DNA of 64,000 nucleotides from an uncultured Bdellovibrionales bacterium (GCA_964612055.1 CAZTBI010000001.1:5688-69687); one strand, 5' to 3'; positions 6,532 to 60,558 are shown, counted from the first letter of the stretch. Numbers and translations: made by a program. The notes: generated by a model not told the origin, from the letters alone.

Positions 6532-6612
6532 CCTGCTTCGGCCCATGCCCTTGGGACGAGAGGGGATTGGTCACAGATTCGGAGGGGATCAGTCACAGCC
6601 GGCTTTAAATCG

Positions 6613-6741
6613 GAGGGAATCTCCCTCGACTAAACCTTTGTTGTCACAAAGGTTTGTCTGGGCACCGCCTCACGATTTCGTCTGCTGACGAAATAACGTT
6701 CCGGCGTTCGACCCCCTACGCAAGCCAAGCAGTTGGCTTGC
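6613..6741. other. ORF-free segment with four stem-loops and degenerate tandem GAGGGGAT(T/C)NGTCACAG
   Basis: hairpins at 6613-6627, 6632-6655, 6675-6694, 6720-6741 (8-9 bp stems). Confidence 0.5.
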
Positions 6742-6771
6742 TCCGAGGCGCAAATTTCCTTCGTCAATTTG

Positions 6772-6845
6772 TGCGCTCGGAGGGGATCGAACCCCCGACC
6801 CTCTGGTTCGAAGCCAGATGCTCTAATCCACTGAGCTACGAGCGC
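6772..6845 (-). tRNA. tRNA-Arg (anticodon TCG)
   Basis: cloverleaf resolved by hand; acceptor GCGCTCG/CGAGCGC, loop CTTCGAA; no encoded CCA. Confidence 0.85.
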
Positions 6846-7676: not shown

Positions 7677-7715
7677 GTTATTATTCTACAGGGTTAATAA
7701 TTTTTTTCCAAATAT

Positions 7716-8195: not shown

Positions 8196-8204
8196 TTTCC
8201 AGAC

Positions 8205-12461: not shown

Positions 12462-15059
12462 TTATGAGACGAGAGCGTCTAAGTACTTGCCAAGCTCAGT
12501 GATCTTTTGTTCGGTTTCAGTCAGGCTCGCGCGGTTTTGTTCCAGGATATGGGCCGGTGCTTTGGCGGTGAAGTTTTCATCTCCGAGACGTTTCTCGATA
12601 CCAGATTTGTATTTTTCAGCCGATTCTTTTTCTTTGGTCAGGCGGATACGTTCTTTCTCGATATCAATCAGGCCACTCAAGTGGACGAAGACCGAAGTCG
12701 CGCCACTTCCGATGCGGGCGGTTTCTTTCGGTTGTGTCTCATCATCAGTGATCACGACTTCTTCGATACGGGCGAGACGTTCGATGAGAGGGACGTATGA
12801 CTCCCAGTCGGATTTTTTACCGACAATGGTGAGCCATGGTTTTTCTCCTGGATCGACGTGGTAAATAGCTCGGACGTTTCTGATTTTCTGGATCAGTTCG
12901 ATGATTGATTGGAAGGCGGTATCCGTTTCGATCTTTTCTTCACTCTTTGGCCAAGGCGCTACCATGAGCAGTGTTTTCTCATTCGGGTAGAGCGACTGGA
13001 AGAGGGCTTCGGTCACAAAGGGCATGAAGGGGTGCCAGAGCTTCAAAAGCTCATTCCAGACAGCGATCAAGACGGCGTCATTTTTCTCAATCTTGTGAAT
13101 CTCGACGTACCAATCGGCATATTCGTTCCAGGTGAAATCGCGAAGGGTTTCTGCGGCGAGGGAAACATTGAAACTTTCGAGATGACGGGTCACTTCAGCA
13201 CGTGTCGCAGCGAGGCGTGACAGAATCCATTGATCAGCTGGTGAGAGTACTTCCTTTCTGAGAGCGACCTTTTCCCATACTACATTTTCTTCGGCGGAGG
13301 CAGTAGTGACGTAGCGGCCGATATTCCAAAGTTTGTTGGCAAAGTTGCGGAACGATTCTACTTTCTTGAAGGAAAGGGGAATATTGTTGCCTGGAGCATT
13401 GCCGGTGATGAGGGCCATACGGAGAGCATCGGTGCCGTACTGTTCGATCAGGTCATTTGGACTGATGACGTTGCCTTTGCTCTTACTCATCTTTTGGCCG
13501 TGTTCGTCATTGACGAGGCCGTGGAGATAAACATGTCGAAAAGGAATTTCTTTCTTGAGATACAAACTGAAGATGACCATGCGAGGAACCCACTTGAAAA
13601 TGAGATCATGTCCTGTTTCCATGACGGTGGTTGGGTGGTAGGTGGCAACATCAGAGGAATCTGGATAGCCAAGTGACAGAAGCGGCCACTGTCCGGAAGA
13701 GAACCAGGTATCAAAGGTATCAGTCTCAGCGACGATTTCGCCACCACAGCTGCAGGTGTCTCCGGCTTTGGCATCGATATAGCCAATGTTACAGGTGGTG
13801 CAGTACTGGGCCGGAATCGGAATACCCCAAACAATCTGACGGGAGATGTTCCAGTCGATAGTGTTTTCCATCCAGTAGGTAAAAATCTTTTCGTAGTTCT
13901 TGGGATGAAACTCGATTTCCTTGTTATCACGTACGGCCTGGAGCGCGAGTTCGGCGAGCGGCTTCATTTTCACGAACCACTGGTCGCGAGCTTGCGGCTC
14001 GATGACGGTCTCGCACTTGTAACAGACCTTCTTGGTGTTCGTATAATTTTCGTCGATTTTTACGAGGAGACCTTTCTTTTCGAGCTTTGCCACGATTTTT
14101 TCGCGTGCTTCATCGATGCTCATACCAGAAAATTCTTCGGCAATAGGGAGGAGCTTCCCTTGTTCATCGATGATCTGCTCGCTCTCGAGATGGTATTTTT
14201 GCGCTAATTCATAGTCGACTTGGGAATGCCAGGGAGTGATAGTCATGACACCGGTGCCGAAAGTCATATCCATGACTGGATCTTTGATGATGGTAGCTTC
14301 GATCGGACCATTGATCCATTCGACTGTCAGTTTGTCACCATGTTTGTAGGCAGCATAGCGCTCGTCATCGGGATGCGTGACGACATACTTATCGCCAAAT
14401 TTTGTTTCAGGGCGAACAGTGGCGATATCGAAAGGGCCATACTTGAAGTAGTAGAGTTTGGAGACAGCCTCCTTAGTTTCGGTCTCGACATCAGAAAGTC
14501 CGGTTTGGTGCTTCGAACACCAGTTGACGATACGCTTTCCTCGATAGACCAAGCCGTCTTGGAACATCTTGTGGAAGGTCTCTTGTACGACGGCGACAAT
14601 CTTTGGATCAAGGGTAAAAGCATTACGGCTCCAATCACAACTGGCGCCGAGCTTACGGAGATCACTTTCCATGTACTTTTTATTTTCCATGGTGAAGTCG
14701 TAGATCTCCTGATAGAGGTCTTCACGTGAGAGATCGAAGCGGGATCGGCCTTCTTTCTCGAGTTTCTTTTCGTATACTACTTGGGTTTCGAAACCAGCAT
14801 GGTCAGCGCCTGGCACCCAGAGCGCCTTTTTCCCGTTCATACGATGAAAACGAGTGAAGATATCTTCGATGGTGACGAAAAGGGCGTGACCAGCGTGCAA
14901 ACGGCCGTTGGCGTTTGGCGGCGGCATGATAATCGAAAAGGCCTCGGTGCGATCACCGGGCAGATTGTCTGGATTGAAAAAACCGCTCTTCTCCCACTGG
15001 GCGTAGAGTTTTTCTTCCCAATCTTTGGCAGTGTAGGTTTTTGGGATTTCTTTGTCCAT
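12462..15059 (-). CDS. valS: valine--tRNA ligase
   Basis: HAGH (HIGH) and KMSKS motifs; ValRS editing and anticodon-binding regions. Track start 15095 is TTG; ATG at 15059 has GAGAGG RBS. Confidence 0.9.
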   Translation of the reverse strand: MDKEIPKTYTAKDWEEKLYAQWEKSGFFNPDNLPGDRTEAFSIIMPPPNANGRLHAGHALFVTIEDIFTRFHRMNGKKALWVPGADHAGFETQVVYEKKLEKEGRSRFDLSREDLYQEIYDFTMENKKYMESDLRKLGASCDWSRNAFTLDPKIVAVVQETFHKMFQDGLVYRGKRIVNWCSKHQTGLSDVETETKEAVSKLYYFKYGPFDIATVRPETKFGDKYVVTHPDDERYAAYKHGDKLTVEWINGPIEATIIKDPVMDMTFGTGVMTITPWHSQVDYELAQKYHLESEQIIDEQGKLLPIAEEFSGMSIDEAREKIVAKLEKKGLLVKIDENYTNTKKVCYKCETVIEPQARDQWFVKMKPLAELALQAVRDNKEIEFHPKNYEKIFTYWMENTIDWNISRQIVWGIPIPAQYCTTCNIGYIDAKAGDTCSCGGEIVAETDTFDTWFSSGQWPLLSLGYPDSSDVATYHPTTVMETGHDLIFKWVPRMVIFSLYLKKEIPFRHVYLHGLVNDEHGQKMSKSKGNVISPNDLIEQYGTDALRMALITGNAPGNNIPLSFKKVESFRNFANKLWNIGRYVTTASAEENVVWEKVALRKEVLSPADQWILSRLAATRAEVTRHLESFNVSLAAETLRDFTWNEYADWYVEIHKIEKNDAVLIAVWNELLKLWHPFMPFVTEALFQSLYPNEKTLLMVAPWPKSEEKIETDTAFQSIIELIQKIRNVRAIYHVDPGEKPWLTIVGKKSDWESYVPLIERLARIEEVVITDDETQPKETARIGSGATSVFVHLSGLIDIEKERIRLTKEKESAEKYKSGIEKRLGDENFTAKAPAHILEQNRASLTETEQKITELGKYLDALVS

Positions 15060-15100
15060 GCCTCTCACGATAGCAGAGAAAAGCCTGAGATTCAAGGACT

Positions 15101-15844
15101 TTAGCCCCTCTTTGTGCCCTTTTTCAGTTTTTTGAAGTTGAAGAGCGGGGCGAAAAGATCGTCTCCGAGGGCGGGCTTGAAATAGGTAAGTTCTTTCTTT
15201 GTTGGAGAGCTTGGTGAAAATTTTACGAAGGGGATATCATTTACGAGAGCGAGCGGTGTCTGCTCATCACCCTCGCCCATAGTCAGGGAGGCAGCGGTCG
15301 CGAGCGCATCGACGTGGTTGGCGTGTGAAGTAAAGAGTGTGCCAAAGATATCAGGGACATGTTCGTAGCCTTTGAGTCCCTCGAAACCGCTCCAGCCAAT
15401 AGCGACCCCAGTGACACCGCGCCGTAGGGGACTGGAATGGCTGTCGACGATAACAACACCGGCTTGTTTAGTGCCAAAACGTTTCACGAGATAGGAGCGA
15501 ACTTTTCTGGCAGTAGCGTAACTATCTTTGGGAAGGAGAGAATAGTAGCCTCCAGTATTGGAAGCGTCCATGCCAGCGCGTGCGATGAAGGCGTTATCTT
15601 TGATGGTGAGAGCAACGCCGTAGCGACTCGCTTGTTTCGGTAAGTAGTAGTCAGCTTCTTGTTTCAGGGTGCCTTCGCTTATTTTTTCGAGCGGGACAAT
15701 GCGTCCTTCACAGAGCGCAACAATTTTTGAGGTGATGACCAAAATTGATCGCTCGGGAAATTTCTTGAGACTGCGATCAAGGAGCGCGGTCAGTGTTGTT
15801 GAGCGTGGCAAGACCTTTTCAGTTTTGATGGGCGTTATCTTCAT
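15101..15844 (-). CDS. CofE-like gamma-glutamyl ligase family protein
   Basis: ITSKIVALCEGR core typical of the F420-0:gamma-glutamyl ligase fold. Confidence 0.5.
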   Translation of the reverse strand: MKITPIKTEKVLPRSTTLTALLDRSLKKFPERSILVITSKIVALCEGRIVPLEKISEGTLKQEADYYLPKQASRYGVALTIKDNAFIARAGMDASNTGGYYSLLPKDSYATARKVRSYLVKRFGTKQAGVVIVDSHSSPLRRGVTGVAIGWSGFEGLKGYEHVPDIFGTLFTSHANHVDALATAASLTMGEGDEQTPLALVNDIPFVKFSPSSPTKKELTYFKPALGDDLFAPLFNFKKLKKGTKRG

Positions 15845-16938
15845 ATCAGATCTTGCAGGGGGAGGTTAGCGTTTGGTTCGAGGGCGGCATAGGATTCTTT
15901 GAGCGCTGCACGATCATTTTCGTTCATGCGTTCGTAGCGGAGCGCAGCCGCGATAGCGATCATAGCGGCATTGTCGAGTGAGTAAGAGAATTCTGGAGTG
16001 AGGAATTGGGTGTTCGGAAACTGTTCGTTGATCAAGCCCTGGAGTCTTTCGCGTAGCCTTACATTGGCGGAGACGCCGCCAGCGATGACAAAAGTTTCTG
16101 GCGAATAGAGTGCGATAGCCTTTTTTGTTTTGCCAGCCAAGACATCGACGACAGCTTCCTGGAATTCGTGGCAGACTTGGTCAATGAATGTTTCATCTTT
16201 CTTTTGTTCTTCGTGTTTTTTGAGAAAGTAGAGGACGGAAGTTTTCAATCCTGAGAAAGAAAAATCAAAATTGTCGGCATCGAGCATCGGGCGAGGAAAG
16301 GAAAATGTTGATGCAGTGCCAGGGTGTTGTAATCGGAAGCTGTCAGCTCTCTTGGCAACGATGGGTCCGCCAGGATAATCGAGACCGAGCATTTTGGCGA
16401 CTTTGTCGAACGCCTCACCGGAAGCGTCATCTTGCGTTTCGCCGAGGATCTCGTAGGTGAAATGATTGTTCATGAGAACGAGTTCGGTGTGGCCACCAGA
16501 AACGACCAAAGCGAGAAGTGGAAAACGCAGTTCAGCATTTTCTTTGAGTAAGTTAGCATAGATGTGGCCTTCCAAGTGCTGGATGCCGATGAGGGGTTTT
16601 TCCCAGAGAAGCGCCAGGAGTTTGGAAGCTGTGACTCCGATGACGAGGGCTGGCATGAGACCAGGGCCTTCGGTGACTGCGATGAGATCAATGTCGGCTG
16701 GAGAGAGCTTGGCTCGATCCAGGGTTTCTTCGACGACGGGGACGATGTTCCGGATATGTTCCCGTGAAGCCAAATCAGGCACGACCCCGCCCCATTTGGC
16801 ATGGAGAGAGGCTTGGGAGGAAACGGTATTGGCGAGGACGGTAGCTTGTGTGCCGCCCGCCTCGGCTTGAGACGGGTTCCAGTCGACGATAGCCGCTGCT
16901 GTCTCATCGCAGGATGTCTCGATGGAGAGGACTTTCAT
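15841..16938 (-). CDS. tsaD: tRNA N6-adenosine threonylcarbamoyltransferase
   Basis: MKVLSIETSCDETAAAIV N-terminus and Kae1/Gcp metal-binding histidines. Confidence 0.9.
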   Translation of the reverse strand: MKVLSIETSCDETAAAIVDWNPSQAEAGGTQATVLANTVSSQASLHAKWGGVVPDLASREHIRNIVPVVEETLDRAKLSPADIDLIAVTEGPGLMPALVIGVTASKLLALLWEKPLIGIQHLEGHIYANLLKENAELRFPLLALVVSGGHTELVLMNNHFTYEILGETQDDASGEAFDKVAKMLGLDYPGGPIVAKRADSFRLQHPGTASTFSFPRPMLDADNFDFSFSGLKTSVLYFLKKHEEQKKDETFIDQVCHEFQEAVVDVLAGKTKKAIALYSPETFVIAGGVSANVRLRERLQGLINEQFPNTQFLTPEFSYSLDNAAMIAIAAALRYERMNENDRAALKESYAALEPNANLPLQDLI

Positions 16939-48484: not shown

Positions 48485-48584
48485 CTGTAACGGTTGTGGT
48501 CTGAAGGGGAAATATATGTTATACTAAAAAAAGAAAAGAAGAGTAAAAATAAAAATTAAAAACAAAAAAGAAGGAGGTGAGCAT

Positions 48585-48965
48585 ATGAAAAAAACATTGA
48601 AAGGATTTACGCTGATTGAACTTTTGATCGTTATCGCCATTATTGGTATTTTGGCATCGATCGTGTTGGTAAGTTTGAGCGGTGCTCGTGTAAAGGCTCA
48701 AAAAGCAGCATTTAAAGCTGAAGTAGCTGGCGCGACTGCTGGTCTTAATATCGGGTGTGATGATGCTGATACTGTTACATTTGTAGAACCGGCTGATACT
48801 GCAACAACAGACTGGGCTGCTTTTACGGGCACTCCAAGCTGTGGAGCGGCAGGTGATGGTACGTTCTCTATCGACGCTGTGCCTTTGGCAGCTGGTGTTA
48901 TTGCGGATGGCTGTACTGGAGCAACAGTAACAGAAACAGGTGCTGATTTTACAAATTGTCCATAA
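48585..48965 (+). CDS. type IV major pilin
   Basis: AAGGAGGTGA RBS; class III signal MKKTLKG|[17 protein letters not shown]; two Cys near C-terminus. Confidence 0.8.
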
Positions 48966-49002
48966 TCTCTCGTATCATTTAAATCAAAGGGAGGTGAATC
49001 TT

Positions 49003-49362
49003 ATGAAAAAAACATTAAAAGGATTTACGCTGATTGAACTCTTGATCGTTATCGCGATCATCGGTATTTTGGCGTCGATCGTGTTGGTAAGCTTGAGCAG
49101 CGCTCGAGGTAAGGCTCAGTTGGCAGCATTTAAAGCTGAAACAGCTGGTGCTGTGGCTGGACTTCTTATTGTATGTGATACAGGCAATATTACGCTCCCA
49201 AACGATACTACAACTACGAATTGGGGGGCAATAACTAACCAGAGTTGTGGTCCAACAAGAGGTGGTGGATTTAACGTTACAGCAACCCCGATTAATGCGG
49301 GTATTGTCTGTAATGCTACAGTGAGTGGTACTGGAACCACGTACGTTGGAGCAGGATGTTAG
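49003..49362 (+). CDS. type IV major pilin paralog
   Basis: AAAGGGAGGTGA RBS; N-terminal about 50 aa nearly identical to the upstream pilin, C-terminal divergent. Confidence 0.8.
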
Positions 49363-49380: not shown

Positions 49381-49415
49381 TTAAAACAAGGGCGTAATGC
49401 CCTTGTTTTATCTTA
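49381..49415 (+). terminator. intrinsic terminator after pilin pair
   Basis: ACAAGGGC-GTAAT-GCCCTTGT followed by TTTATCTT. Confidence 0.7.
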
Positions 49416-49517: not shown

Positions 49518-51191
49518 ATGACCATACCAAGGGTACTCTCCCAGAGTCTGGGAAGAATTTATCGGCTGTTCGTATCGAGTACTGCCCTTAGGTTTTTTTT
49601 TGTTTTTATTTTTTTCTGCCTCTTTTTTTCGTTTTACCTCTTTTTCTATACTTTCACCTCTACTGATGACCAATTCTTCAATGTAAGATTGGCGCAAAAA
49701 ATCAGCGTCGAGGGGCTTAGTATTCTTCAAAACTTCAATGAATTTTCTGAAGTAACTGCCCGTCCATGGGTTTTTAATATTCTTTTTTATTATCTCCTTA
49801 TTCCTTTTACGTGGTTTTATCCTCTTGAACTAGGGATTAAGGTCTTTGCTGTAACTAGCTTGGCGTTTACATTTACCGTCATCTTCTTTTTTCTTGAAAA
49901 AAATAATATTAAAAAGTCGTTTCTTTGGTTGTTATTAGCTGTTGGTTTTTTCTTTACCCCTCCTGATCTCTGGCATTTTTTAATGGCACGTGCCTTTGTA
50001 TTGGTGCCAGCTTTACTTATCCTCCTTCTCTATTTTTTACAAATAAAGAATTATGGAGCTCTTTTTTTTCTATCCTTCCTTTCTTTTTTTCTCCACACAG
50101 CAACTTTCTTTTTGCCGCTGGTAGTAGGAATAATCTTTTGCGTTTTTTCTTGGCAAAGTACAAGACGTTCAGTATTGTTTTCGTTGTTGAGTGTTGTAGG
50201 CGGAACTGCCGCAGCGCTTCTTCTTGGCGCTCTTTTTATCCCGGGTTTTCTTCCCATTGTGTGGAATTTCTGGGATTCTCTTTATAGAATTGTAGTATCT
50301 TTTCATGTATCAAGTTTCGTGCAAATTGATGAAGGAATGGAAAGTTATCCGACGACGTTGTTTGATATTTTTTCACAGCACGCGATTTTGATCGCGCTTC
50401 TTATCATGTTCACCGGTTCGTACGTAGCACGTATTTTTGAGGCGAATCGAAGAAGGGTATCTTTTGGAAATCCTGTGCAGCTCACCTTGATGGCGCTTTC
50501 CATTCTTTTTTTATTGGGATCATTTATTACTAAGCGTAACCTGGATTTTTTCTTCGTCTTTTCTAGTCTATTTCTGCTGCTGGCTCTCTCTGAATTCTTT
50601 GAAACTATAAAATTCAATGTAAAAAGAATACATATTTTTTCTTTAGGGGTGGTTATTTTCGTGGCTCTCGCCTCTCAATTGTTGGCTATTATGGATATGC
50701 TTGCTGTCTCTTCTGATTATGCAAGTATCAAAGGAGCCGCTCAATGGGCGAAAGAGCATACAGAAAAAGGCAGCGTGGTCTTCAATCCTACGATGAATTT
50801 TTTTCCAACATTTTATTTCTATAATGAGGGTCATAATAAGATGATTGTCGGTATTGAGCCGCGAGATTTTTATCAGACCAATTCAAGGAAATACTGGCTC
50901 TGGTATAACCTCTCTGCTTATGGAGTGATTTGCGGAGAGCAAAAGTGCGCTAGAGAAACTGCTTTGCGTGACGCGATGCTACAATCTTATAAAGACCAAT
51001 GGTACAAGGAAAACGGAGAAAGAGTGAGGGATCTTCTTCTGAATGAATTTTCAACGAACTTGATACTTGTAAGGCCTGATTTTATTGCTTTACAGCCATT
51101 GTTGCAAAACAGTCCTTCATTTGAAGAGGTCTACGCTACGCCGATAACGAAAACATATACTCTGTATCGTATAAAAGAAATTGATAAATAA
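49518..51191 (+). CDS. GT-C-fold-like polytopic membrane protein (ArnT/PMT/TfpW-like glycosyltransferase candidate)
   Basis: about 12-13 TM N-terminal domain plus about 130-aa soluble C-terminal domain. Confidence 0.4.
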   Translation: MTIPRVLSQSLGRIYRLFVSSTALRFFFVFIFFCLFFSFYLFFYTFTSTDDQFFNVRLAQKISVEGLSILQNFNEFSEVTARPWVFNILFYYLLIPFTWFYPLELGIKVFAVTSLAFTFTVIFFFLEKNNIKKSFLWLLLAVGFFFTPPDLWHFLMARAFVLVPALLILLLYFLQIKNYGALFFLSFLSFFLHTATFFLPLVVGIIFCVFSWQSTRRSVLFSLLSVVGGTAAALLLGALFIPGFLPIVWNFWDSLYRIVVSFHVSSFVQIDEGMESYPTTLFDIFSQHAILIALLIMFTGSYVARIFEANRRRVSFGNPVQLTLMALSILFLLGSFITKRNLDFFFVFSSLFLLLALSEFFETIKFNVKRIHIFSLGVVIFVALASQLLAIMDMLAVSSDYASIKGAAQWAKEHTEKGSVVFNPTMNFFPTFYFYNEGHNKMIVGIEPRDFYQTNSRKYWLWYNLSAYGVICGEQKCARETALRDAMLQSYKDQWYKENGERVRDLLLNEFSTNLILVRPDFIALQPLLQNSPSFEEVYATPITKTYTLYRIKEIDK

Positions 51192-51194
51192 TGT

Positions 51195-52235
51195 ATGGAT
51201 TCTCAGTTACGTATTATCGTGATTGGAGGTGGATGGGTAACCGAGAATAGGCATTTGCCTGCTTTAAGAAAAGAGAGGCGTATCTTGCTTCAGTCTGTAA
51301 TAAGCAAGAATGTCGATCGGGCTGAATTTCTCAAAAAGAAATTTTCTGCCAAGACATATTTTGGCGGGGATGGAGTGGATTTCTCACAGGTACTCCAAGG
51401 TTGTGATGCGGTAGTGATAGGATCGGACCCATTTTCTCATTATGAAATTGCCAAACAAGCCATTGCTTTAGGTAAGCATGTTTTAATGGAAAAACCGCTG
51501 ACGTTGTCGGTGGTAGAGTCGGCCGAATTGGTAGGGTTAGCTAAAGAGAAAAAGATACGTTTTGCGGTGGTGCATAATTTCCAGTTTTCCCAATCAGCCT
51601 CTGCTCTGAAAGAAGATATAGAGAAGGGCAAACTCGGAGAGATCCGGTCTTTGGAGGCAAAGCAATATAGTAACGAGAAAAGAAGACTGCCAGTTTGGTA
51701 TGAGGATTTGCCCTGGGGTCTTTTTTATGATGAATCGCCGCATCTTTTGTATCTTCTTGAGATGGTAGGAGGAAAACAAAGCCTTCAACATTCTCAGGTG
51801 CTGTTTCGATCAGGGGTCACTACGCCTGTGTTGGTGGAAGGTCTTTTAATAGGTGAAACAGGAATACCTTCGGTGCTGAGTATGAACTTTTCTGCTTCAC
51901 TTTCTGAATGGTTCCTTATTGTTCATGGATCAAAACGCACCGGTATACTTGATATTTTCCGGGATACTTACTTTTCTCTCCCAAATGACGGTAAACACAC
52001 GCCCAAGGATATTTTCCGGACTTCATGGCTCGTCTTTTTTGGGCATTTTACGGGAGTTGTAAAAAGTGGAATCAAGGTATTGAGAGGGGGCTATCTTTGC
52101 GGTAATGAAGAAGTGGTCAAGAGATTTGTTGATGCTGTTTTGGATAACAGGCCGCTGGGGACTCTGGATGCTGAAAACGGACTGCGGATAAACGCTTTGC
52201 AACATGAAATAATGGAGCGCTCATTTCATCTATAG
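51195..52235 (+). CDS. Gfo/Idh/MocA family NAD(P)-dependent oxidoreductase
   Basis: Rossmann IVIGGGWVTENRHLPAL and EKP motif. Confidence 0.8.
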   Translation: MDSQLRIIVIGGGWVTENRHLPALRKERRILLQSVISKNVDRAEFLKKKFSAKTYFGGDGVDFSQVLQGCDAVVIGSDPFSHYEIAKQAIALGKHVLMEKPLTLSVVESAELVGLAKEKKIRFAVVHNFQFSQSASALKEDIEKGKLGEIRSLEAKQYSNEKRRLPVWYEDLPWGLFYDESPHLLYLLEMVGGKQSLQHSQVLFRSGVTTPVLVEGLLIGETGIPSVLSMNFSASLSEWFLIVHGSKRTGILDIFRDTYFSLPNDGKHTPKDIFRTSWLVFFGHFTGVVKSGIKVLRGGYLCGNEEVVKRFVDAVLDNRPLGTLDAENGLRINALQHEIMERSFHL

Positions 52236-53380
52236 TGTCTATGCTTGCAACGAAAAAGAAGGTGTTGGTAGTGGCTACTCATTTTCCTCCCCACACAGGG
52301 GGAGTAGAAAAATACACCCTCGACTTTTTTTCAGTATTAGGACAGGAATATCGAAATCTCGACATCAGTATTCTTTCCCTGCAAACCGCCAAAGCACCAA
52401 AGCGTGAAAGGATAGGGGTGCTAAATGTGGTGAGGGTTCCATGTTTTGGATCAGATATTAATCCATTTTTTTCTCCTAAAAAAGTCCAGGGAGCTTTAGA
52501 GGACATGGATTTTTCTTCTTTCGATCTCGTCATTACCCAATGCCGGTATTATCTTTTCACTGGATACATGGTCTTTACAGCGCGGCGTAAAGGAATGCCT
52601 GTGTTGCACATCGAGCATAATGCCGGATACATGCTTCACAAGAACCCCCTCATTACTTTGATAGCGAGACTGTACGATGTTTTTATTGGTAGAAAAGTTT
52701 TGAGTAAGGCGACGTCTATTGTTGCGATTTCTGAGAGCGTGAAAAAATTTCTTAAAGAAAATTTCAAGATAACGGGTGCTATTGAAGTGATTCCTGGCGG
52801 CATACAGACAAAAGAGTGGGTCGGTTCAGAATCTCTTTCTGATACAAAAACGTTTGTGTATTGCGGAAGGCTTATTCGTGAAAAGGGCGTTTCGATCCTT
52901 TTGGAAGCATTCGAAATGTTGCAAAATAAGTATCCGGAAACTTCTCTCAAGATTCTGGGAGATGGTCCTGAGATGGGGCTTCTAAAAAGACAAGTTTTAG
53001 AAAAAAAATTGGAGAAACGGGTGGAGTTCTTTGGTGTAGTATCAAGCGATTTTATAAAGAATCTTTATAAAATAAAACCCGTCTTTGTCAATCCTTCATT
53101 CTATGCAGAAGGTTTTCAAATCGCTCTCTTAGAAGCAGTAGCGAGTGGATTACCGATTATTACTACTTCAGTCGGCGGGGCAGGGGAATTGCTCGAAGCA
53201 AATAGGAGTGCCCTTTTTGTTGTTTCTCGGGATAAAAAATCTCTTTTTTATGCCATGGAAGAGTATTTGCTTTTTCCACAAAAAGCAGATACGTATAGCT
53301 CTGTCGCTTCACGGAAGGTGAAGGAATATTTTTCGCAAGAGAAAATGGTTGAAAAGTTCTACCGATATGTTTTTTCATAG
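52235..53380 (+). CDS. family-4 glycosyltransferase (GT-B)
   Basis: EGFQIALLEAVASGLPIITTSVGG (E-X7-E motif). Confidence 0.8.
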   Translation: MSMLATKKKVLVVATHFPPHTGGVEKYTLDFFSVLGQEYRNLDISILSLQTAKAPKRERIGVLNVVRVPCFGSDINPFFSPKKVQGALEDMDFSSFDLVITQCRYYLFTGYMVFTARRKGMPVLHIEHNAGYMLHKNPLITLIARLYDVFIGRKVLSKATSIVAISESVKKFLKENFKITGAIEVIPGGIQTKEWVGSESLSDTKTFVYCGRLIREKGVSILLEAFEMLQNKYPETSLKILGDGPEMGLLKRQVLEKKLEKRVEFFGVVSSDFIKNLYKIKPVFVNPSFYAEGFQIALLEAVASGLPIITTSVGGAGELLEANRSALFVVSRDKKSLFYAMEEYLLFPQKADTYSSVASRKVKEYFSQEKMVEKFYRYVFS

Positions 53381-53756
53381 AAATCTTCAATTTTTTCGTT
53401 TTGTTGTAATCGGAGGTTTTTCTTATGGATTAAGTCTTCTCTTTTTGATATTTTTGATAGAAATTCTTGCCCTTCCTTACCTTGTAGCAACAGCACTTGT
53501 CTTTTTTGGTATCAACGGTTTAAGCTTTTTTATGAATAAGAGGTATACTTTTTTATTAACAGGGGGTCTTTTCCAAACAGAGCTTCTTCGATATTATGGA
53601 ATCATGCTTCTCAGCTTGATTCTGAATTTGGCTGGAATGTATATGTTGGTAGGGATTCTGCAGTTTTCTATAGTCGTAGCGAGTATAATTGTGTCAGGCG
53701 TTCTTTTATTTTTTAACTATTTTTTTCATAAAAATTTTACTTTTCGTACCAAATAA
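53367..53756 (+). CDS. GtrA family protein
   Basis: four TM; FFRFVVIGGFSYGLSL; overlaps the GT4 stop. Confidence 0.6.
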   Translation: MFFHRNLQFFRFVVIGGFSYGLSLLFLIFLIEILALPYLVATALVFFGINGLSFFMNKRYTFLLTGGLFQTELLRYYGIMLLSLILNLAGMYMLVGILQFSIVVASIIVSGVLLFFNYFFHKNFTFRTK

Positions 53757-53760
53757 TTTT

Positions 53761-54510
53761 ATGGCTCAGTACGATATTTTCTTTCAGAACGAACATCCAA
53801 AAATAGCTCAGAGATTTTTAACCTGGCTGAATTTTTCTTTGTTTCAGTTTCTTAAAAGGAACATTGTTTCTAAAGAAGCAAGCAAGGTGCGTATCTTGGA
53901 GATCGGTCCTGGGAAAGGATACTTTTACCAAGCAATATCGAAAGCAAAAAATGTTTCTTATGTGGCATGTGACCGAAACATTTCTTTCCGTCAATCTTTT
54001 CCAGAAGCTGAATTTTACCTTGCTACAGCGCCTTCCTTTCCTGAAAACATCGGTACTTTCGACATGATTTACGCATCTTATGTAGTGGAGCATCTGAGTG
54101 ATGGATTGGCTGTGGCAGAACTTCTCCGCGGTTGTCTGAAACACCTCAATCCTGGTGGGATTGTAGTTATAACTTGTCCAAATGCTTTGGCGCAGAAGTT
54201 TGAATTTTGGAATATGGATTATACCCATCGATATCCTACAACCGCACGAAATATACACATGGCTTTTTTAGAAGCCGGATTTTCTAGCACGGAGATATAT
54301 GAAATATCTGGATTGTTGACGTTCCCAGGCTTTACTTTCAGGCCATTTCAGTGGTGTCTCAAAGTGGTATTGTTTTTTTATCGTTACAGAGTGATGCATT
54401 TTTTCTTTGGCTGGATTTTGAAAAAGAAATTATACGAATTGAATAACTCTTTCTACCGATTATATTGTCTAGTAAAGCAGGAAAATTTACTGTGTATTGG
54501 TAAGAAATAA
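53761..54510 (+). CDS. class I SAM-dependent methyltransferase
   Basis: motif I LEIGPGKGY; ATG 53761 follows the GtrA stop. Confidence 0.7.
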   Translation: MAQYDIFFQNEHPKIAQRFLTWLNFSLFQFLKRNIVSKEASKVRILEIGPGKGYFYQAISKAKNVSYVACDRNISFRQSFPEAEFYLATAPSFPENIGTFDMIYASYVVEHLSDGLAVAELLRGCLKHLNPGGIVVITCPNALAQKFEFWNMDYTHRYPTTARNIHMAFLEAGFSSTEIYEISGLLTFPGFTFRPFQWCLKVVLFFYRYRVMHFFFGWILKKKLYELNNSFYRLYCLVKQENLLCIGKK

Positions 54511-54514
54511 AACT

Positions 54515-55660
54515 ATGACAGAAGTTTCTGTTGTTATTCCTTGCTTGAATGAGGCAAAAACTTTGCCTATCGTTATTGATATGGCCAAAAGCGGCCTGTC
54601 GAAAGTTTCGCTTTCTGGAGAAATAATGATCGCTGATAACGGTTCAGATGATGGTTCTCAGGTTTTGGCGGAATCACTTGGTGCCCGGGTGGTTCCTGTG
54701 AAGAACAGGGGGTATGGCAATGCTCTTGCCACGGGAATTCTTGCTGCAGAAGGAAAGTATATTATCTTTGCTGATGCCGATGGTTCATATGACTTCAGTC
54801 AGCTTCCTGTCTTTATTGAGGCTTTACGAAAGGGCGCCGATCTTGTTATTGGCAATCGCTTTGCAAGGAAGATGGAGAGAGGTGCTATGCCAGCGCTTCA
54901 TCGTTATCTTGGAACTCCTGTGCTTACTGCGCTTATCAATTTCTTTTTCAAAACAAAAATCTCTGATTGTAATTGTGGCATGCGGGGGATAAAAAAAGAG
55001 TCTTTTGAAAAAATGCAGATTCTTTCGACAGGCATGGAATTTGCTTCAGAAATGGTTATTAAGGCTGGATTACTCGGTATGAAAGTGGTAGAGGCACCGA
55101 TTTATTTTATGAAAGATAAAAGAGATAGAGAACCTCATCTGCGTACTTGGCATGATGGGTGGAGGCATCTGCGTCTCATTCTTATCTACGCCCCTAACTA
55201 CCTATTTATTTATCCAGGAAGCATCCTTTTTATTTCGGGAAGCATCCTACTTTTTATGCAGCTTTTTGGGCCGGTGATTATCGGACCGATGTATATGGAT
55301 CTTCATTTTATGATTCTTGGGCTTATGCTGAGTGTTCTAGGTCTTTCTATTTTTCTTATGGGAGCTACTATCAAGCAATTTTCTTATCAACACGACTACT
55401 ATTTGGAGGATTTTACCGTCACTTTTTTTGAAAGAAGTTCTTTTGAAAAGAAGCTTGTTCCAGGAACTCTTTTTTTCGCTATCGGGACAGGGTTGGCCGT
55501 GGGGATCTTTATTCGTTGGATTGGCGGTCATTTTGCCAATCCTAACATGCTGCGAGGAGCACTTTTTAGTCTCTACTTTATGTCTACTGGTTTGCTTGTT
55601 TCCCTTTTCTCTTTTCTTGAGCTTGTGATGAGAATACAGAACAAAGAAAAAAATAAATGA
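54515..55660 (+). CDS. polyprenyl-phosphate sugar synthase-like GT2 (DPM1/ArnC-like) with C-terminal TM domain
   Basis: VVIPCLNE, DNGSDDGS, D-x-D and four C-terminal TM helices. Confidence 0.8.
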   Translation: MTEVSVVIPCLNEAKTLPIVIDMAKSGLSKVSLSGEIMIADNGSDDGSQVLAESLGARVVPVKNRGYGNALATGILAAEGKYIIFADADGSYDFSQLPVFIEALRKGADLVIGNRFARKMERGAMPALHRYLGTPVLTALINFFFKTKISDCNCGMRGIKKESFEKMQILSTGMEFASEMVIKAGLLGMKVVEAPIYFMKDKRDREPHLRTWHDGWRHLRLILIYAPNYLFIYPGSILFISGSILLFMQLFGPVIIGPMYMDLHFMILGLMLSVLGLSIFLMGATIKQFSYQHDYYLEDFTVTFFERSSFEKKLVPGTLFFAIGTGLAVGIFIRWIGGHFANPNMLRGALFSLYFMSTGLLVSLFSFLELVMRIQNKEKNK

Positions 55661-55939
55661 TTTTTTCTTTGTTGCCGCTGGGGCCCTGCTCTAGGAGTCG
55701 CGTGCCTACAGAACATTGTTGATTTCGGTCTCCCTAGGGATTTCGAACCTAATCGGAACCGATCTTTTTAGAGGCTTCTTGGTGCAGGTGATAGCCATTT
55801 GGCGCTTTTTTTTCTAATGTTGGCAATACGCATCTGTGGTAACGGTATTTTGAACGTAACCGAGCTTTCTTTTGGATTTTTCTTAGTATATACTATGGAT
55901 GTATTTTATCTTTTTTAACCAATAACCTTTCAGAACGGT

Positions 55940-58900
55940 ATGTTGTACTCAGCGTTCGTTTCCCGCGCTGTTCTTGTTGTAACGTTTTCCTTGTTCGCCT
56001 TCTTTGCTGCTCCTTTTTTGGTATCTGCGGCTACCGAAGTATCTGGTCCTATCGATACAAATACCACGTGGACCAAAGCTAATGGTCCGTATGTGGTCAC
56101 TGGTCTGGTGACGGTGGAGAAGGGCGTGACGCTTACTATTAAACCGGGCGCGGTGGTGAAAGTGCAACAAGCAGGCGGAGGCTTTTACAACGGCCTTACT
56201 GTTAAAGGGAAATTGAATGCTACGGGTACCGCTACGGCCCGTATTTCTTTTACTGCTTATACTGATGATTCCGTAGGGGGCGATACGAACGGTGACGGAT
56301 CAGGAACGTCCCCAGCGCCTGGTTATTGGACAGAAATCCGTGTAGCGAGCAAGGGCATAGCGAATTTGCGCTATGCCAATGTCCGTTATGCAGGGAGTAC
56401 ATCAGAAGATGGAAAATCAAACGGCCTGCGTAATGATGGAGGGACGCTATTGTTTGAAAATGGAACCTTGGAATATAACGAGAATTACAGTCTTTATCAC
56501 TCGGGCGGTACGAGTACTGTTGCATCAAGTAAGGTACGCAATCATAATATAGCTATCTCTGTGCAGAATCCCTTTGTTTCCGTGACGGGATCGGAGTTTT
56601 CTGGAAACCAACAGGTGTTCGATATCGGTCCTGGTGGAAATGCTTGGATTTCTGAATCAGGTAACACTATTGTAGATGGTCAAAGGGGATATATATCTAT
56701 CCCCGGAGCCAATATTACGAGTGATACGACCTGGCAAGGAAGTAGCTTTCCCTATGTCATTTCCGGTACTGTCGTTGTCAATCAAGGCGCTACTCTTACC
56801 ATGAACCCGGGCGTGATTATCAAGGGAAGAATCAACAACTCCCTTTTCATGATACAAGGTACCCTTCTGGCTCTCGGGACTGCCGAAGCCCCTATCATTT
56901 TTACTGCTGCCAATGATGATGCCGCTGGAGGGGATACGGATGGCGACGGCGGCATTCCGGAAGCGGGATACTGGAAAGGGATTCGCGTGGAACCCACCGG
57001 TACTGCTAGGTTCGATCATACAGCTGTTCGTTACGCGGGAGGGTATGAGTACGCATATACTGAATTCTCGAACCTTATCAATCAGGGCGGTACCCTTGAG
57101 TTTACCAACTCAGAGACTTCTTTTGCTAGTCAAAATGGTATCAAGCACAATGCTGGAACGACGACGGTGGCGGGGAGTAACCTGGCACATACTCCAGTAG
57201 GTGTTTATATCACTGCTCCTTTTGTTTCCGTGACTGACTCGGTATTTGATACTACTCCAACAGCCATAAGTGTTGCTGGCGGTGATTACTCCTCAGATAT
57301 TTTTACAGCATCGGGTAATACATATGTCGGGAACCAGGTTCCTATTATTGAGATATCTAGCATGAATGTTGTCGGGAATGTTACATGGGGAAGTAGCTTT
57401 CCCTATGTCATTTCCGGTACTGTCGTTGTCAATCAAGGCGCTACTCTTACCATGAACCCGGGCGTGATTATCAAGGGAAGAATCAACAACTCCCTTTTCA
57501 TGATACAAGGTACCCTTCTGGCTCTCGGGACTGCCGAAGCCCCTATCATTTTTACTGCTGCCAATGATGATGCCGCTGGAGGGGATACGGATGGCGACGG
57601 CGGCATTCCGGAAGCGGGATACTGGAAAGGGATTCGCGTGGAACCCACCGGTACTGCTAGGTTCGATCATACAGCTGTTCGTTACGCGGGAGGGTATGAG
57701 TACGCATATACTGAATTCTCGAACCTTATCAATCAGGGCGGTACCCTTGAGTTTACCAACTCAGAGACTTCTTTTGCTAGTCAAAATGGTATCAAGCACA
57801 ATGCTGGAACGACGACGGTGGCGGGGAGTAATTTAACCAATAACGGCGCTTACGGGATAGAGAGTTCTTTGTTCTCATCTAATATCGATGCGCGTAATAA
57901 CTGGTGGGGAAGTCCGTCCGGACCATATCATGCAACAAAAAATCCTGATGGTACTGGTAATGGAATATCGGGTCGTGTCAGTTTTCAGCCTTGGGCTATG
58001 GCACCATTTGATATCGGCTTGTCTTGCGTTGTTGGTACTAAGGGCTGTTACTCCAATGTTCTCTTTCTTCCAGGTATTATGGGGAGCAATCTGTATCAGT
58101 CAGATGAAGAGAAGTGTTGGTTACAGGATATGAACCATGTTGGAGATACTGACTATGATTGTGTAAGGATGAGTAGCGCTGACACTCCGAACACTTCCGG
58201 GCTGCGTACGAAAAATTTAGTATCTTACGATGGGTTGGCGGCTCCCTATCAAGCGATAGAAGATGCTATGAAGGGGTGGCAAACGGAATTGGGTATCGCG
58301 GCGATTACCACTCCGTATGATTGGCGTTATGATTTCGATCACACTGTACGAAGTGGTACCGTGGAGGGTAATGGATATATTTCCTATGAAGACACGGTCA
58401 GTAAGGGGTATATCGAAAAAGAACTTCGGGCGCTGGCAGCGAATTCAAAAACTGGAAAAGTAACAGTAGTAGCGCATTCCATGGGTGGACTAGTAGCCAA
58501 AGAGCTGTTTTCAAAGATCGGGAGTAGTGAGACGGCTCGTCTAGTTGATAAGTTTATTTTGATTGCTTCGCCGCAACTTGGAACCCCCAAGGCAGTAGCT
58601 GCGCTGCTTCATGGTACGGACATGGCGTTAGGGAGTATTTTTTGGACTCTTGTTACGGACGCTCAAGCGCGAGGACTTTCTCATGACATGCAAAGCGCTT
58701 ATAATCTACTTCCCTCACAGGAGTATCTGGATTCTCTGGAGCGTGATGGGAATGGCGTACCATATGATCCGGCAGTGAGATTCTCGAATGAAAACGGTTA
58801 TTTCGACCGTATGATCGGAGATTATGGTGACAATATTGTTGATCGGACGAAACTTGCTGGGTTTATGTCGGATGGCCAGTGGAGCGGTACATCATTCAAT

Positions 58901-59725
58901 GATACGAAAACTCCATGGCAAGCGATACGGACGATGTCTGATGATGCGGAAGTTACACATAGCGCACTTGATAGTTGGAAGCCGCCAAAAGGAGTGAAGT
59001 TTACAACTCTTGCTGGGTGGGGGATGGATACGATATCTACCTTACAGTACGCAGAACATGAGGAAGATAATGAAGAGGTAATTGAAATGAGTCCTCAGCA
59101 TGTCGTTGATGGTGACGAGACCGTGGTGACTGGAAGTGCCTTGTATTCGAGCAACAGGAGTGATGTAGAACGGTATTGGTTGGATCTTCCGAGTGCTGGT
59201 GGTCAGACTCACTCAAAAATTTTTGATGTCCCGTCACTTCGTACCTTCATCCACAACAAAATTACTGGCGAGCCTGTGAACTCTCTCGATTACATCTATA
59301 CTTCCCGGCCGTCAGATTCTCAGATCAAACGTCTTCATTTCGTTCTGCATTCGCCACTGACACTCGGGTTCCGTGATGATCAAGGTCGCTATACCGGTAA
59401 GACAATCGATGGTAAAGTAAAGCTAGAGATTCCCGGATCTCAATATGAACGCTATGGTGAAGTGCAATGGCTCTCTCTTCCGGTACAGACTATTGGTCAG
59501 CTTGAGCTTGTCGGGACGGCTGATGGAAAATTCACCCTTGAGGTAAGAGAGAAGCAGGGTAATACTCTCAAGAAACAGATCGATTTCGAACGAATTGCTT
59601 CGAGGAAGGATACGTTTGTCCGGATGCGTTTCGATGGAAAATCTGGGCCGGTCGTGACTGATGATCTGAAGCTGGAAATTGACCTGGATCATAATGGGGA
59701 ATTCCAATCTATTGGAGCAAATTAG
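55940..59725 (+). CDS. giant secreted beta-helix repeat protein with C-terminal alpha/beta-hydrolase (lipase-like) domain
   Basis: signal peptide; parallel beta-helix-like repeats (NxGxxxxF... pattern); AHSMGG nucleophile elbow. Confidence 0.6.
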   Translation: MLYSAFVSRAVLVVTFSLFAFFAAPFLVSAATEVSGPIDTNTTWTKANGPYVVTGLVTVEKGVTLTIKPGAVVKVQQAGGGFYNGLTVKGKLNATGTATARISFTAYTDDSVGGDTNGDGSGTSPAPGYWTEIRVASKGIANLRYANVRYAGSTSEDGKSNGLRNDGGTLLFENGTLEYNENYSLYHSGGTSTVASSKVRNHNIAISVQNPFVSVTGSEFSGNQQVFDIGPGGNAWISESGNTIVDGQRGYISIPGANITSDTTWQGSSFPYVISGTVVVNQGATLTMNPGVIIKGRINNSLFMIQGTLLALGTAEAPIIFTAANDDAAGGDTDGDGGIPEAGYWKGIRVEPTGTARFDHTAVRYAGGYEYAYTEFSNLINQGGTLEFTNSETSFASQNGIKHNAGTTTVAGSNLAHTPVGVYITAPFVSVTDSVFDTTPTAISVAGGDYSSDIFTASGNTYVGNQVPIIEISSMNVVGNVTWGSSFPYVISGTVVVNQGATLTMNPGVIIKGRINNSLFMIQGTLLALGTAEAPIIFTAANDDAAGGDTDGDGGIPEAGYWKGIRVEPTGTARFDHTAVRYAGGYEYAYTEFSNLINQGGTLEFTNSETSFASQNGIKHNAGTTTVAGSNLTNNGAYGIESSLFSSNIDARNNWWGSPSGPYHATKNPDGTGNGISGRVSFQPWAMAPFDIGLSCVVGTKGCYSNVLFLPGIMGSNLYQSDEEKCWLQDMNHVGDTDYDCVRMSSADTPNTSGLRTKNLVSYDGLAAPYQAIEDAMKGWQTELGIAAITTPYDWRYDFDHTVRSGTVEGNGYISYEDTVSKGYIEKELRALAANSKTGKVTVVAHSMGGLVAKELFSKIGSSETARLVDKFILIASPQLGTPKAVAALLHGTDMALGSIFWTLVTDAQARGLSHDMQSAYNLLPSQEYLDSLERDGNGVPYDPAVRFSNENGYFDRMIGDYGDNIVDRTKLAGFMSDGQWSGTSFNDTKTPWQAIRTMSDDAEVTHSALDSWKPPKGVKFTTLAGWGMDTISTLQYAEHEEDNEEVIEMSPQHVVDGDETVVTGSALYSSNRSDVERYWLDLPSAGGQTHSKIFDVPSLRTFIHNKITGEPVNSLDYIYTSRPSDSQIKRLHFVLHSPLTLGFRDDQGRYTGKTIDGKVKLEIPGSQYERYGEVQWLSLPVQTIGQLELVGTADGKFTLEVREKQGNTLKKQIDFERIASRKDTFVRMRFDGKSGPVVTDDLKLEIDLDHNGEFQSIGAN
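56741..57833 (+). repeat. 442-bp perfect direct repeat (56741-57182 and 57392-57833), period 651 bp, in frame inside the giant gene
   Basis: identical nucleotide strings including GGAAGTAGCTTTCCCTATGTCATTTCC...GTGGCGGGGAGTAA. Confidence 0.85.
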
Positions 59726-59760: not shown

Positions 59761-60558
59761 ATGCATATATTTCTTTTTTTCATTCTCGGACTGGCAGTCG
59801 GGAGTTTTCTCAATGTTTTAGTCTATCGTTTGAAGGATGGTGAGACATTGGGTGGGCGTTCCTACTGTCGACACTGCAAGCATCAGATTCGCTGGTATGA
59901 TAACGTGCCGCTTCTGAGTTTTCTTGTTCTTGGGGGAAAGTGTCGTGATTGCAAAGAGCGACTTTCTTGGCAGTATCCACTCCTTGAGGCAGCGACAGGT
60001 ATTGGTTTTGTATTGGTAGGAAACTTCTTCTTTGTGCTTGAGGATCAAATGACGTGGATTGAAACTGGGTGGCTTCTGGGTATTGTCGCCTTGTTTCTGG
60101 CTATTGCGGCTTATGACCTCATCAATATGGAAATCCCGCTGTCACTTCTGGTGGCGAGCGCTTTGTGGACAGGGGCATTTCTTCTTATGACGTTGTATAT
60201 GGAGCCATTGCCGAGAGAGTTGTGGTGGGAAGCTCGTCTGGCGCAAGGTGTGCTTGGTGGTGGTGTGATAGCGCTTTTTTTCTTTGCTCTGGTGTACGCT
60301 TCCAAGGAAACATGGATGGGATGGGGAGATGTCTGGCTCGGTGGGGTGGCAGGGATGATTGTAGGACTACCGGCAGCACTTCTCATGCTGACGCTTTCTT
60401 TTGGCTTCGGTGCACTTTTTGGTCTCGGTATGATTGCGTTTCATAAGAAGGGGATGAAAAGTCAGATTCCTTTTGCTCCGTATTTGGTACTTGGTACTCT
60501 TCTGACGCTTTTTCTCCCGAAGATGCTTCCTCAATTGATAGGACAGATTTTGCTGTAG
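59761..60558 (+). CDS. pilD: prepilin peptidase/N-methyltransferase (A24 family)
   Basis: CxxC...CxxC zinc-binding tetracysteine and A24 TM core. Confidence 0.85.
   Translation: MHIFLFFILGLAVGSFLNVLVYRLKDGETLGGRSYCRHCKHQIRWYDNVPLLSFLVLGGKCRDCKERLSWQYPLLEAATGIGFVLVGNFFFVLEDQMTWIETGWLLGIVALFLAIAAYDLINMEIPLSLLVASALWTGAFLLMTLYMEPLPRELWWEARLAQGVLGGGVIALFFFALVYASKETWMGWGDVWLGGVAGMIVGLPAALLMLTLSFGFGALFGLGMIAFHKKGMKSQIPFAPYLVLGTLLTLFLPKMLPQLIGQILL

Follow-up and report, generated by a model that had tools for sequence, protein, structure and literature searches.

A candidate type IV pilin glycosylation module built around an STT3-like GT-C protein in a Patescibacteria-type pilus locus

Introduction

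What purpose do six sugar-handling genes serve in the middle of a type IV pilus locus? The question is raised by a 64,000-nucleotide (nt) stretch of DNA from an uncultured Bdellovibrionales bacterium (GCA_964612055.1, CAZTBI010000001.1:5688-69687), here called the window. Positions 49518-55660 of the window hold a block of six genes, led by a gene for a 557-residue membrane protein of the glycosyltransferase (GT) class GT-C, between the major pilins and the prepilin peptidase gene pilD. We consider it probable that this block is a dedicated type IV pilin glycosylation module, using a polyprenyl-phosphate-linked and probably methylated short glycan.

The ultrasmall, host-dependent Patescibacteria are thought to use type IV pili in finding and binding their hosts and in taking up host material, with experimental evidence from Saccharibacteria (PMC12206443). 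In that experimental study, O-glycosylation was predicted in silico only. We found no description of a dedicated pilin glycosyltransferase or other pilin-modifying enzyme in Patescibacteria in the literature searched. That a GT-C enzyme can glycosylate pilins from a lipid-linked donor is known in itself; what is new here is an unannotated STT3-like family that would carry it out.

Results and discussion

A six-gene block between the major pilins and pilD

The six genes were all found as open reading frames (ORFs) on the + strand, in the position first reported for them. The block and the features that frame it are as follows (TM, transmembrane; SAM, S-adenosylmethionine; DPMS, dolichyl-phosphate-mannose synthase; the asparagine sequon is N-x-S/T).

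48585..48965, +, major pilin 1, 126 residues, class III signal peptide, no sequons (PF07963 N_methyl, E 6e-9)
49003..49362, +, major pilin 2, 119 residues, five sequons, candidate acceptor (PF07963, E 5e-9)
49382..49410, +, intrinsic-terminator-like hairpin with a 12-bp stem and a U-rich 3' side (sequence reading and RNA fold)
49518..51191, +, predicted GT-C-fold glycosyltransferase, 557 residues, 13 TM helices and an extracytoplasmic C-terminal domain (AlphaFold2 model, profile alignment)
51195..52235, +, Gfo/Idh/MocA NAD(P)-dependent sugar oxidoreductase, 346 residues (PF01408, E 1.6e-21)
52235..53380, +, cytoplasmic GT4 glycosyltransferase of GT-B fold, 381 residues (PF00534, E 2.4e-31; PF13439, E 2e-14)
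53349..53756, +, GtrA-family small membrane protein, 135-residue ORF (PF04138 GtrA_DPMS_TM, E 7.7e-12)
53761..54510, +, class I SAM-dependent methyltransferase, 249 residues (PF13489, E 6e-16)
54497..55660, +, GT2 polyprenyl-phosphate glycosyltransferase of DPMS/ArnC/GtrB/AglJ type with C-terminal TM helices, 387 residues (PF00535, E 3.4e-27)
59761..60558, +, prepilin peptidase PilD, the downstream edge of the inserted block (PF06750, E 5.5e-30; PF01478)

The junctions between the six genes are tight (+3, -1, -32, +4 and -14 nt), in keeping with a single operon. This operon starts 155 nt past the end of pilin 2, with the hairpin in between. Genes for PilO-like, PilB, PilT and PilC proteins precede the pilins, and the block is followed by a secreted 1261-residue protein (after a gap of 279 nt), PilD and minor pilins. 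The hairpin has a folding energy of -18.1 kcal/mol (z -3.8), which none of 200 shuffles equalled. It was overlooked by our terminator scan and found on separate folding; the promoter and terminator scans gave counts no higher than in shuffled sequence.

Domain assignments in Pfam and NCBIfam, together with solved relatives, bore out the identities originally proposed for genes two to six. The methyltransferase ORF opens at a TTG codon (53689), but the ATG at 53761 is most likely the start because the orthologue in the closest locus considered here (L001) begins likewise, being 249 residues long and starting 5 nt after gtrA. Neither an aminotransferase nor a phosphoglycosyl transferase was found among the Pfam and NCBIfam domain calls of the six-gene cluster. 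The sugar had been described as possibly aminated, and with no aminotransferase in the cluster that description is unsupported.

The lead protein is predicted to have a GT-C fold closest to STT3

The 557-residue protein had no match in Pfam, NCBIfam or the PDB sequences, whether searched alone or as profiles of 19 or 39 members. PDB matches to a uracil-DNA glycosylase (E 0.58) and to sodium-channel beta-1 (E 0.017) were judged spurious. An AlphaFold2 model built with 19 homologues (pLDDT 88.5, pTM 0.87) predicts a GT-C fold, with 13 hydrophobic helices ending by residue 397, juxtamembrane helices at 52-71 and an alpha/beta C-terminal globular domain. The multi-TM core with its N-terminus inside, an acidic residue in a long first external loop (D51, just after TM1) and the extracytoplasmic C-terminal domain are the features of the GT-C_A class.

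In a Foldseek search the model matched STT3 best (E 2e-8, TM-score 0.6), followed by DPY19, PglB, AftA and ArnT. Enzymes that act on proteins lead the structural matches (STT3, DPY19, Pmt4, AglB and PglB) with ArnT ranked lower, and no WaaL/PglL-type protein was among them. The preliminary description had likened the protein to ArnT, PMT and TfpW. Its 13 TM helices and C-terminal globular domain are reproduced in the model, but the likeness has to be revised, the nearest proteins being STT3, PglB and AglB. A grouping with O-antigen ligases or lipid A modifiers, which had been named as an outcome that would count against the proposal, was not seen, and the best matches act on proteins.

The family is large and without annotation: a HMMER scan of 1.84 billion cluster representatives returned 3,087 members (clusters at 50% identity), 1,178 of them below 1e-30. 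Four members (P0041, P0056, P0079 and P0100; 729-810 residues) are natural fusions of a GT2 and the GT-C in a single polypeptide, and their N-terminal GT2 is of the AglJ, dolichyl-phosphate (Dol-P)-hexose or PpgS type. A PDB search with P0056 gave matches through the GT2 half only. Two other long members, P0127 and P0154, have N-terminal extensions of about 265 residues without a Pfam match.

A sequence link to STT3 and PglB places candidate catalytic residues

Seventy-eight diverse family members were scanned against Pfam and NCBIfam. The NCBIfam model TIGR04154 (archaeosortase-associated STT3, archaeo_STT3) was weakly matched by 15 of them, at best with E 8.4e-8 and about 28 bits against a cut-off of 450. 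None of the 78 matched any other NCBIfam GT-C model or Pfam STT3 (PF02516), and the 557-residue protein itself matches neither the Pfam nor the NCBIfam STT3 models. Pfam Dpy19 gave a single weak match (E 0.11) among 39 members.

For comparison with PglB, sequences were gathered with a Campylobacter jejuni PglB sequence as bait (best match 99% identical and annotated PF02516), and 13 retrieved sequences were aligned with C. lari PglB first. Aligned to these by hhalign, the 78-member family profile gave a probability of 78% (E 1.8e-5) over 279 columns, spanning residues 48-363 of the window protein and 53-398 of PglB. The alignment pairs D51 with PglB D56, the catalytic aspartate of the first external loop (EL1), and pairs E275, which lies in a conserved G-x-E-x-Y-P motif, with E319 of the PglB TIXE motif (the TIXE/SVSE glutamate of EL5). 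It also pairs R340 with PglB R375, and a conserved arginine of the family (His153 in the window protein) with PglB R147. Across 139 diverse members D51 and R340 are invariant and E275 is kept in at least 90%. These three residues are thus candidate catalytic residues, as judged from conservation and alignment.

The GT-C gene stays with the pilins while the donor genes are exchanged

The GT-C gene adjoins the major pilins, downstream of pilC, in the window and in 13 of 13 distinct relatives at 30-78% identity, which come from metagenome-assembled genomes (MAGs) of Moraniibacteriota, Minisyncoccota and other Patescibacteria. It lies upstream of pilD in every relative whose retrieved stretch includes pilD. 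Conservation beside the pilins had been suggested as a check on the proposed pilin role, and it holds in every relative with 30% identity or more, including those with different sugar genes or none detected. The gene content of the pilin-linked relatives is as follows (L numbers denote loci).

Same six genes: L001, L004/L005, L011 and L014
Lone GT2 gene directly upstream of the GT-C gene: L006, L018, L020 and L021
Opposite-strand cassette of a PpgS-like GT2 (E 2.8e-40), a DUF2304 protein, a methyltransferase and a second GT2: L007 and L009/L012
No sugar genes detected nearby: L002/L013 and L019; also L017, with an unexamined 1.7-kb gap

In L002 and L019 the pilin linkage is kept although no sugar genes were detected. 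The GT-C gene alone is thus the constant, pilin-linked part, and the other five genes are one of several interchangeable donor cassettes.

What these cassettes might make can be read in part from their members. The GT2 protein of the window has as its nearest solved relatives the Pyrococcus furiosus Dol-P-mannose synthase (1e-13), ArnC (4e-11) and GtrB; its best NCBIfam match is archaeal AglJ (E 9e-37, below cut-off), and its orthologues carry PF26629 GT2_TM_C. The Gfo/Idh/MocA protein weakly matches UDP-GlcNAc 3-dehydrogenase and glycoside 3-dehydrogenases, with solved relatives that include DgpA and the sugar 3-ketoreductase KijD10. The GT4 gave generic GT4 matches alone. The GtrA protein is a candidate flippase or partner for the polyprenyl-phosphate glycan. 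At its C-terminus the methyltransferase has a hydrophobic or amphipathic tail (…FQWCLKVVLFFYRYRVMHFFFGWIL…, encoded at 54300-54510), which may be a membrane anchor suiting action on a lipid-linked sugar. Two unrelated cassettes, that of the window and the opposite-strand one, match in their parts: both pair a polyprenyl-phosphate GT2 with a small membrane protein and add a methyltransferase and a second glycosyltransferase. This shared list suggests that the donor is a methylated di- or oligosaccharide linked to polyprenyl monophosphate.

A scan of metagenomes with a PilC profile recovered 80 related pilus loci, 37 of them informative. Only one of the 37 (L102) has the GT-C gene. The remaining 36 lack it and run straight from the pilins to pilD, which marks the module as an accessory inserted there. 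The distance from pilC to pilD is 0.6-4.1 kb in these 36 loci (2.9 kb or less in 34) compared with 11.3 kb in the window. Compared with their L001 counterparts, the PilB, PilT, PilC and pilin 1 proteins of the window show 93-98% identity (pilin 1, 94%), but identity falls to 76% for pilin 2 and to 58-82% for the six glycosylation proteins. A surface feature that evolves fast would be expected to show just such divergence of pilin 2 and the glycosylation genes.

What lies between the pilins and pilD varies among related loci. Elsewhere this junction holds extra pilin-like genes or paralogues, an IS200-like transposase or a PKD-domain protein (L147 10194-10850; L143 6292-7925), and no glycosyltransferases were found in these inserts of L143 and L147. 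The G+C content at 49600-55999 is 0.34-0.44, against 0.45-0.51 in the flanking pil genes, and is low in the genes for soluble enzymes too, consistent with a separately evolving or acquired cassette.

These last features would also suit an enzyme with no business with pilins. The GT-C protein could modify a non-protein envelope component (a wall polymer, peptidoglycan-linked glycan or glycolipid), as ArnT and the Gtr-type modifiers of O-antigen and of lipoteichoic and wall teichoic acids (LTA/WTA) do, and owe its place in the pilus locus to an accident of insertion. GtrA, a GtrB-like GT2 and a GT-C form the classic three-component set for modifying glycans, the junction accepts unrelated inserts, the cluster is lower in G+C than its flanks, and distant family members are without pilus linkage. 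Yet the GT-C gene keeps its place beside the pilins at identities of 30-78%, through replacement or loss of the sugar genes, the sole sequence-level links of the protein are to the protein-acting STT3 and PglB, and an excess of sequons, described below, is confined to the pilins of enzyme-bearing loci. We therefore regard an envelope-glycan substrate as unlikely.

Two observations on the retrieved loci concern their records. In L004, a JGI contig, PilB, PilC and the GT2 are each broken into several ORFs (4407-8534 and 15049-16181). L005 encodes a GT-C protein identical to that of L004 and has the GT2 as one intact ORF, the PilB/PilC region being off its contig. The split ORFs of L004 are probably sequencing frameshifts rather than pseudogenes. 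Separately, several MAGs with third-party annotation labelled 'uncultured Bdellovibrionales' (L011, L013-L016, L020 and L022) carry loci syntenic with pilus loci of Moraniibacteriota/Patescibacteria type, at up to 93% protein identity, and these labels look wrong.

Sequons are enriched in the major pilins of enzyme-bearing loci

Next, the pilins themselves were considered as acceptors. Sequon counts were compared with an expectation from shuffles that keep the composition of each pilin, with the following results (observed vs expected).

Major pilins of GT-C-positive loci (n=25): 64 vs 43.2
Major pilins of GT-C-positive loci, 24-pilin set: 62 vs 40.8, p < 0.0005
Twelve non-redundant pilins of GT-C-positive loci: 30 vs 20.9, p = 0.012
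Reverse motif S/T-x-N, 24-pilin set: 36 vs 40.5, no enrichment
Longer minor-pilin-like proteins of GT-C-positive loci: 17 vs 25.4, depleted
Pilins of the 36 GT-C-negative loci (n=50): 61 vs 62.1, at expectation

Sequons are thus in 1.5-fold ratio to expectation in GT-C-positive loci and 1.0-fold in GT-C-negative ones (Mann-Whitney p = 0.0025). In the window, pilin 2 has five sequons, at N55, N60, N72, N84 and N97 of the mature protein, against 1.4 expected. Sequon positions recur in the aligned pilins of GT-C-positive loci, after the first cysteine and around the third. Pilins 1 and 2 are identical over their first 32 residues, with 84% identity over their 5' 178 nt (48584-48761 and 49002-49179), and diverge strongly in their globular parts. 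Pilin 2, with its many sequons, is the most likely acceptor. As to the linkage, we lean slightly towards asparagine in N-x-S/T, for which the sequon enrichment is a statistical hint, with serine or threonine as the alternative.

A broader substrate range has to be weighed at this point. The GT-C protein could be a general protein glycosyltransferase acting mainly on the 1261-residue protein or on many surface proteins, the pilins being incidental or no substrate. PglB, AglB and PglL-type systems are typically broad-spectrum, and the 1261-residue protein has a signal peptide, is encoded directly downstream and is present in L001 too. Against this, L001 is the only GT-C-positive relative in which that protein was detected, its 12 sequons are no more than the 12.4 expected, 279 nt separate its gene from the operon, and the longer minor-pilin-like proteins of the same loci are poor in sequons. 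A general enzyme of this kind seems to us distinctly unlikely. Pilins and the giant protein had both been put forward as targets, and linkage and sequon bias support the former only.

The secreted 1261-residue neighbour

The neighbouring gene encodes the following protein.

55940..59725, +, secreted 1261-residue protein with a repeat region and a C-terminal LCAT-like lipase domain (PF02450 LCAT, E 6e-14)

Its translation has a signal peptide, repeats ('...GATLTMNPGVIIKG...') and an LCAT-like lipase or alpha/beta-hydrolase domain at residues 725-1062. According to the gene tables it is missing downstream in L002, L004/L005, L006 and L009. It was rejected as a glycosylation target because it is not conserved with the GT-C protein and shows no sequon excess. 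The protein could be an effector with which an episymbiont attacks host membranes. Within its gene, a perfect 443-nt direct repeat (56738-57180 and 57389-57831, 651 nt apart) duplicates a block of the repeat region; the duplication either happened very recently or is an artefact of assembly.

A proposed pathway and the points that weigh against it

Taken together, these results suggest a pathway in which the GT2 would draw on a nucleotide sugar to load the first sugar on polyprenyl (undecaprenyl) monophosphate at the cytoplasmic face, and the GT4 would probably add a second. The Gfo/Idh/MocA oxidoreductase and the SAM-dependent methyltransferase would tailor the glycan, and GtrA would assist the lipid-linked product across the membrane. 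On the outer face the 13-TM GT-C protein would then move the glycan to the major pilins while these are still anchored in the membrane, before assembly. Its STT3/PglB-like active site would consist of R340 and two external-loop residues, D51 in the first such loop and E275 in a long one.

Several points weigh against this reading. The analysis is computational throughout, and the roles given to the GT4, the Gfo/Idh/MocA protein and the methyltransferase are guesses from family membership. Sequons are entirely lacking in pilin 1. The proteins compared in the sequon test are relatives (the p value of the non-redundant subset is 0.012), so its statistics are suggestive and not proof. Family members at 29% identity or less, mostly from Acidobacteriota of the class Blastocatellia, have no pilus genes within 8 kb, and the family as a whole is therefore not pilin-specific. 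One such acidobacterial homologue, L042, has neither glycosylation nor pilus genes among its neighbours within 8 kb.

The alignment to PglB has limits of its own, since its probability is just 78% and the TM part alone is covered. The second DXD/DXXK motif, in EL2 (PglB D154-T-D156), has no acidic counterpart; D154 falls in a gap, and the family has R/H153...R158 there. The WWDYG motif lies outside the aligned part, and neither WWD nor WD[YF] occurs in the window protein. About 25 residues past TM13, which we take to be the spacing of WWDYG in PglB as well, the window protein has FNPTMNFFP, the pilin-linked clade FNPT(M/I)NFFP and the wider family FNTDWDDFP. The last of these is a possible relic of WWDYG. 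Because the second DXD is unmatched and WWDYG is absent, we treat the family as a distant relative of the GT66 enzymes that would work like them, and not as a member of GT66. One could speculate that a missing second DXD fits a donor without a pyrophosphate to neutralise. To our knowledge, archaeal AglBs that use Dol-P donors keep the second DXD, which counts against that idea.

The distant branch (L022-L090; for example L042 7740-9611) is mainly from Acidobacteriota (Blastocatellia, Pyrinomonadaceae), and FNTDWDDFP is conserved in it; neither glycosylation nor pilus genes lie within 8 kb of these members.

The absence of WWDYG and of the second DXD could also mean that the protein is no enzyme at all. 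It might be an inactive GT-C-fold scaffold, a chaperone for pilins or an accessory of their assembly, comparable to PIG-U and GAB1 in the glycosylphosphatidylinositol (GPI) transamidase, with the sugar genes belonging to another pathway; the absence of detectable sugar genes near the GT-C gene in L002 and L019 would suit such a role. This is hard to reconcile with D51 and R340 being invariant and E275 nearly so in divergent members, all three aligning with catalytic residues of PglB, or with the natural fusions to a GT2 of polyprenyl-phosphate type and the presence of such a GT2 alongside the GT-C protein in most loci. We consider a scaffold very improbable.

The pilin glycosylation module therefore remains our preferred reading. 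A more specific version can be put forward tentatively, although we hold it to be doubtful as a whole: that Patescibacteria N-glycosylate their pilins at N-x-S/T through an unrecognised, streamlined STT3-like enzyme that lacks WWDYG and the second DXD and takes a short methylated glycan assembled by an AglJ-like GT2 on polyprenyl monophosphate. If so, this would be an archaeal-style route outside the PglB systems of Campylobacterota type, and the family of some 3,000 clusters, which extends to Acidobacteriota and other phyla, would add a new branch to the protein glycosyltransferases. Linkage to asparagine would also widen the known distribution of bacterial STT3-type oligosaccharyltransferases, bear on their minimal requirements and offer a compact enzyme for glycoengineering.

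Whichever residue is modified, glycosylation genes that can be exchanged as a module at the pilin locus would readily give rise to surface variation and could affect host range, phage evasion and pilus stability. The analysis also gives a large unannotated family (the 3,087 clusters) a name and a testable active site.

Comparison with known systems

In structure and sequence the lead protein is nearest to STT3, PglB and AglB (CAZy family GT66), and its nearest functional analogue is TfpW. It shares with the GT66 enzymes 13 TM helices and a C-terminal globular domain, and its partner GT2 most resembles archaeal AglJ and Dol-P hexose transferases. In archaea, AglB is known to attach N-glycans to type IV pilins and archaellins (PMC4390842, PMC4371748). 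Unlike the GT66 enzymes, the window protein is some 150-250 residues shorter and sits in a bacterial pilus locus, not a general glycosylation locus; its neighbour genes point to a monophosphate-linked donor, no phosphoglycosyl transferase being encoded in the cluster.

The other enzymes known to act on proteins are further removed. DPY19 (GT98) is a C-mannosyltransferase that acts on proteins with a Dol-P-monosaccharide donor. Unlike its substrates, the window pilins are without a WxxW/C acceptor motif: a regular-expression search for W..[WC] found none in either. The O-oligosaccharyltransferases PglL and TfpO (PilO) resemble the present system in targeting type IV pilins, and tfpO too lies directly after pilA, but they belong to another protein family; the window protein has no Wzy_C match in Pfam and no WaaL/PglL-type structural match. 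From PMT (GT39) it differs in having neither the PMT/PMT_2 sequence signature nor a luminal MIR domain.

Three-component GtrA/GtrB/GT-C systems modify O-antigen and LTA/WTA, and in arabinogalactan PpgS-Rv3632-Rv3779 adds galactosamine (PMC11127046, PMC5836110). Like them, the block encodes a polyprenyl-phosphate GT2 and an extracytoplasmic GT-C together with a small membrane protein as partner, which is GtrA in the window and a DUF2304 protein in relatives. Those systems put single sugars on glycans, whereas here an extra GT4, oxidoreductase and methyltransferase suggest a tailored oligosaccharide, the acceptor would be a protein, and the GT-C comes from a different, STT3-like family.

TfpW, which arabinosylates the group IV pilins of Pseudomonas, is a GT-C whose gene follows pilA; it has a DDX motif in loop 1, a polyprenyl-phosphate-sugar donor and a GtrA-like helper (bioRxiv 10.1101/2020.04.19.049825). 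It has 11 predicted TM helices, a C-terminal TPR (tetratricopeptide repeat) domain and a YX6PFX7P motif, with ArnT as its best template (bioRxiv 10.1101/2020.04.19.049825). These described features set the two apart: the window protein has no TPR match in Pfam, a C-terminal domain of mixed alpha/beta structure and no YX6PFX7P; STT3 or DPY19 is its best structural match; and the cluster holds no DprE1/DprE2-type genes for D-arabinofuranose (D-Araf). The Emb proline motif was likewise not found in the 557-residue protein. The resemblance lies in the arrangement. As with TfpW, the GT-C is encoded directly downstream of a major pilin (155 nt away), an order kept in 13 relatives, and has a DDX motif in its first external or periplasmic loop (here D50-D51-Q52). 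Both have a GtrA-like partner and a donor linked, in our case probably, to polyprenyl phosphate, and both are accessory modules present in only some pilus loci.

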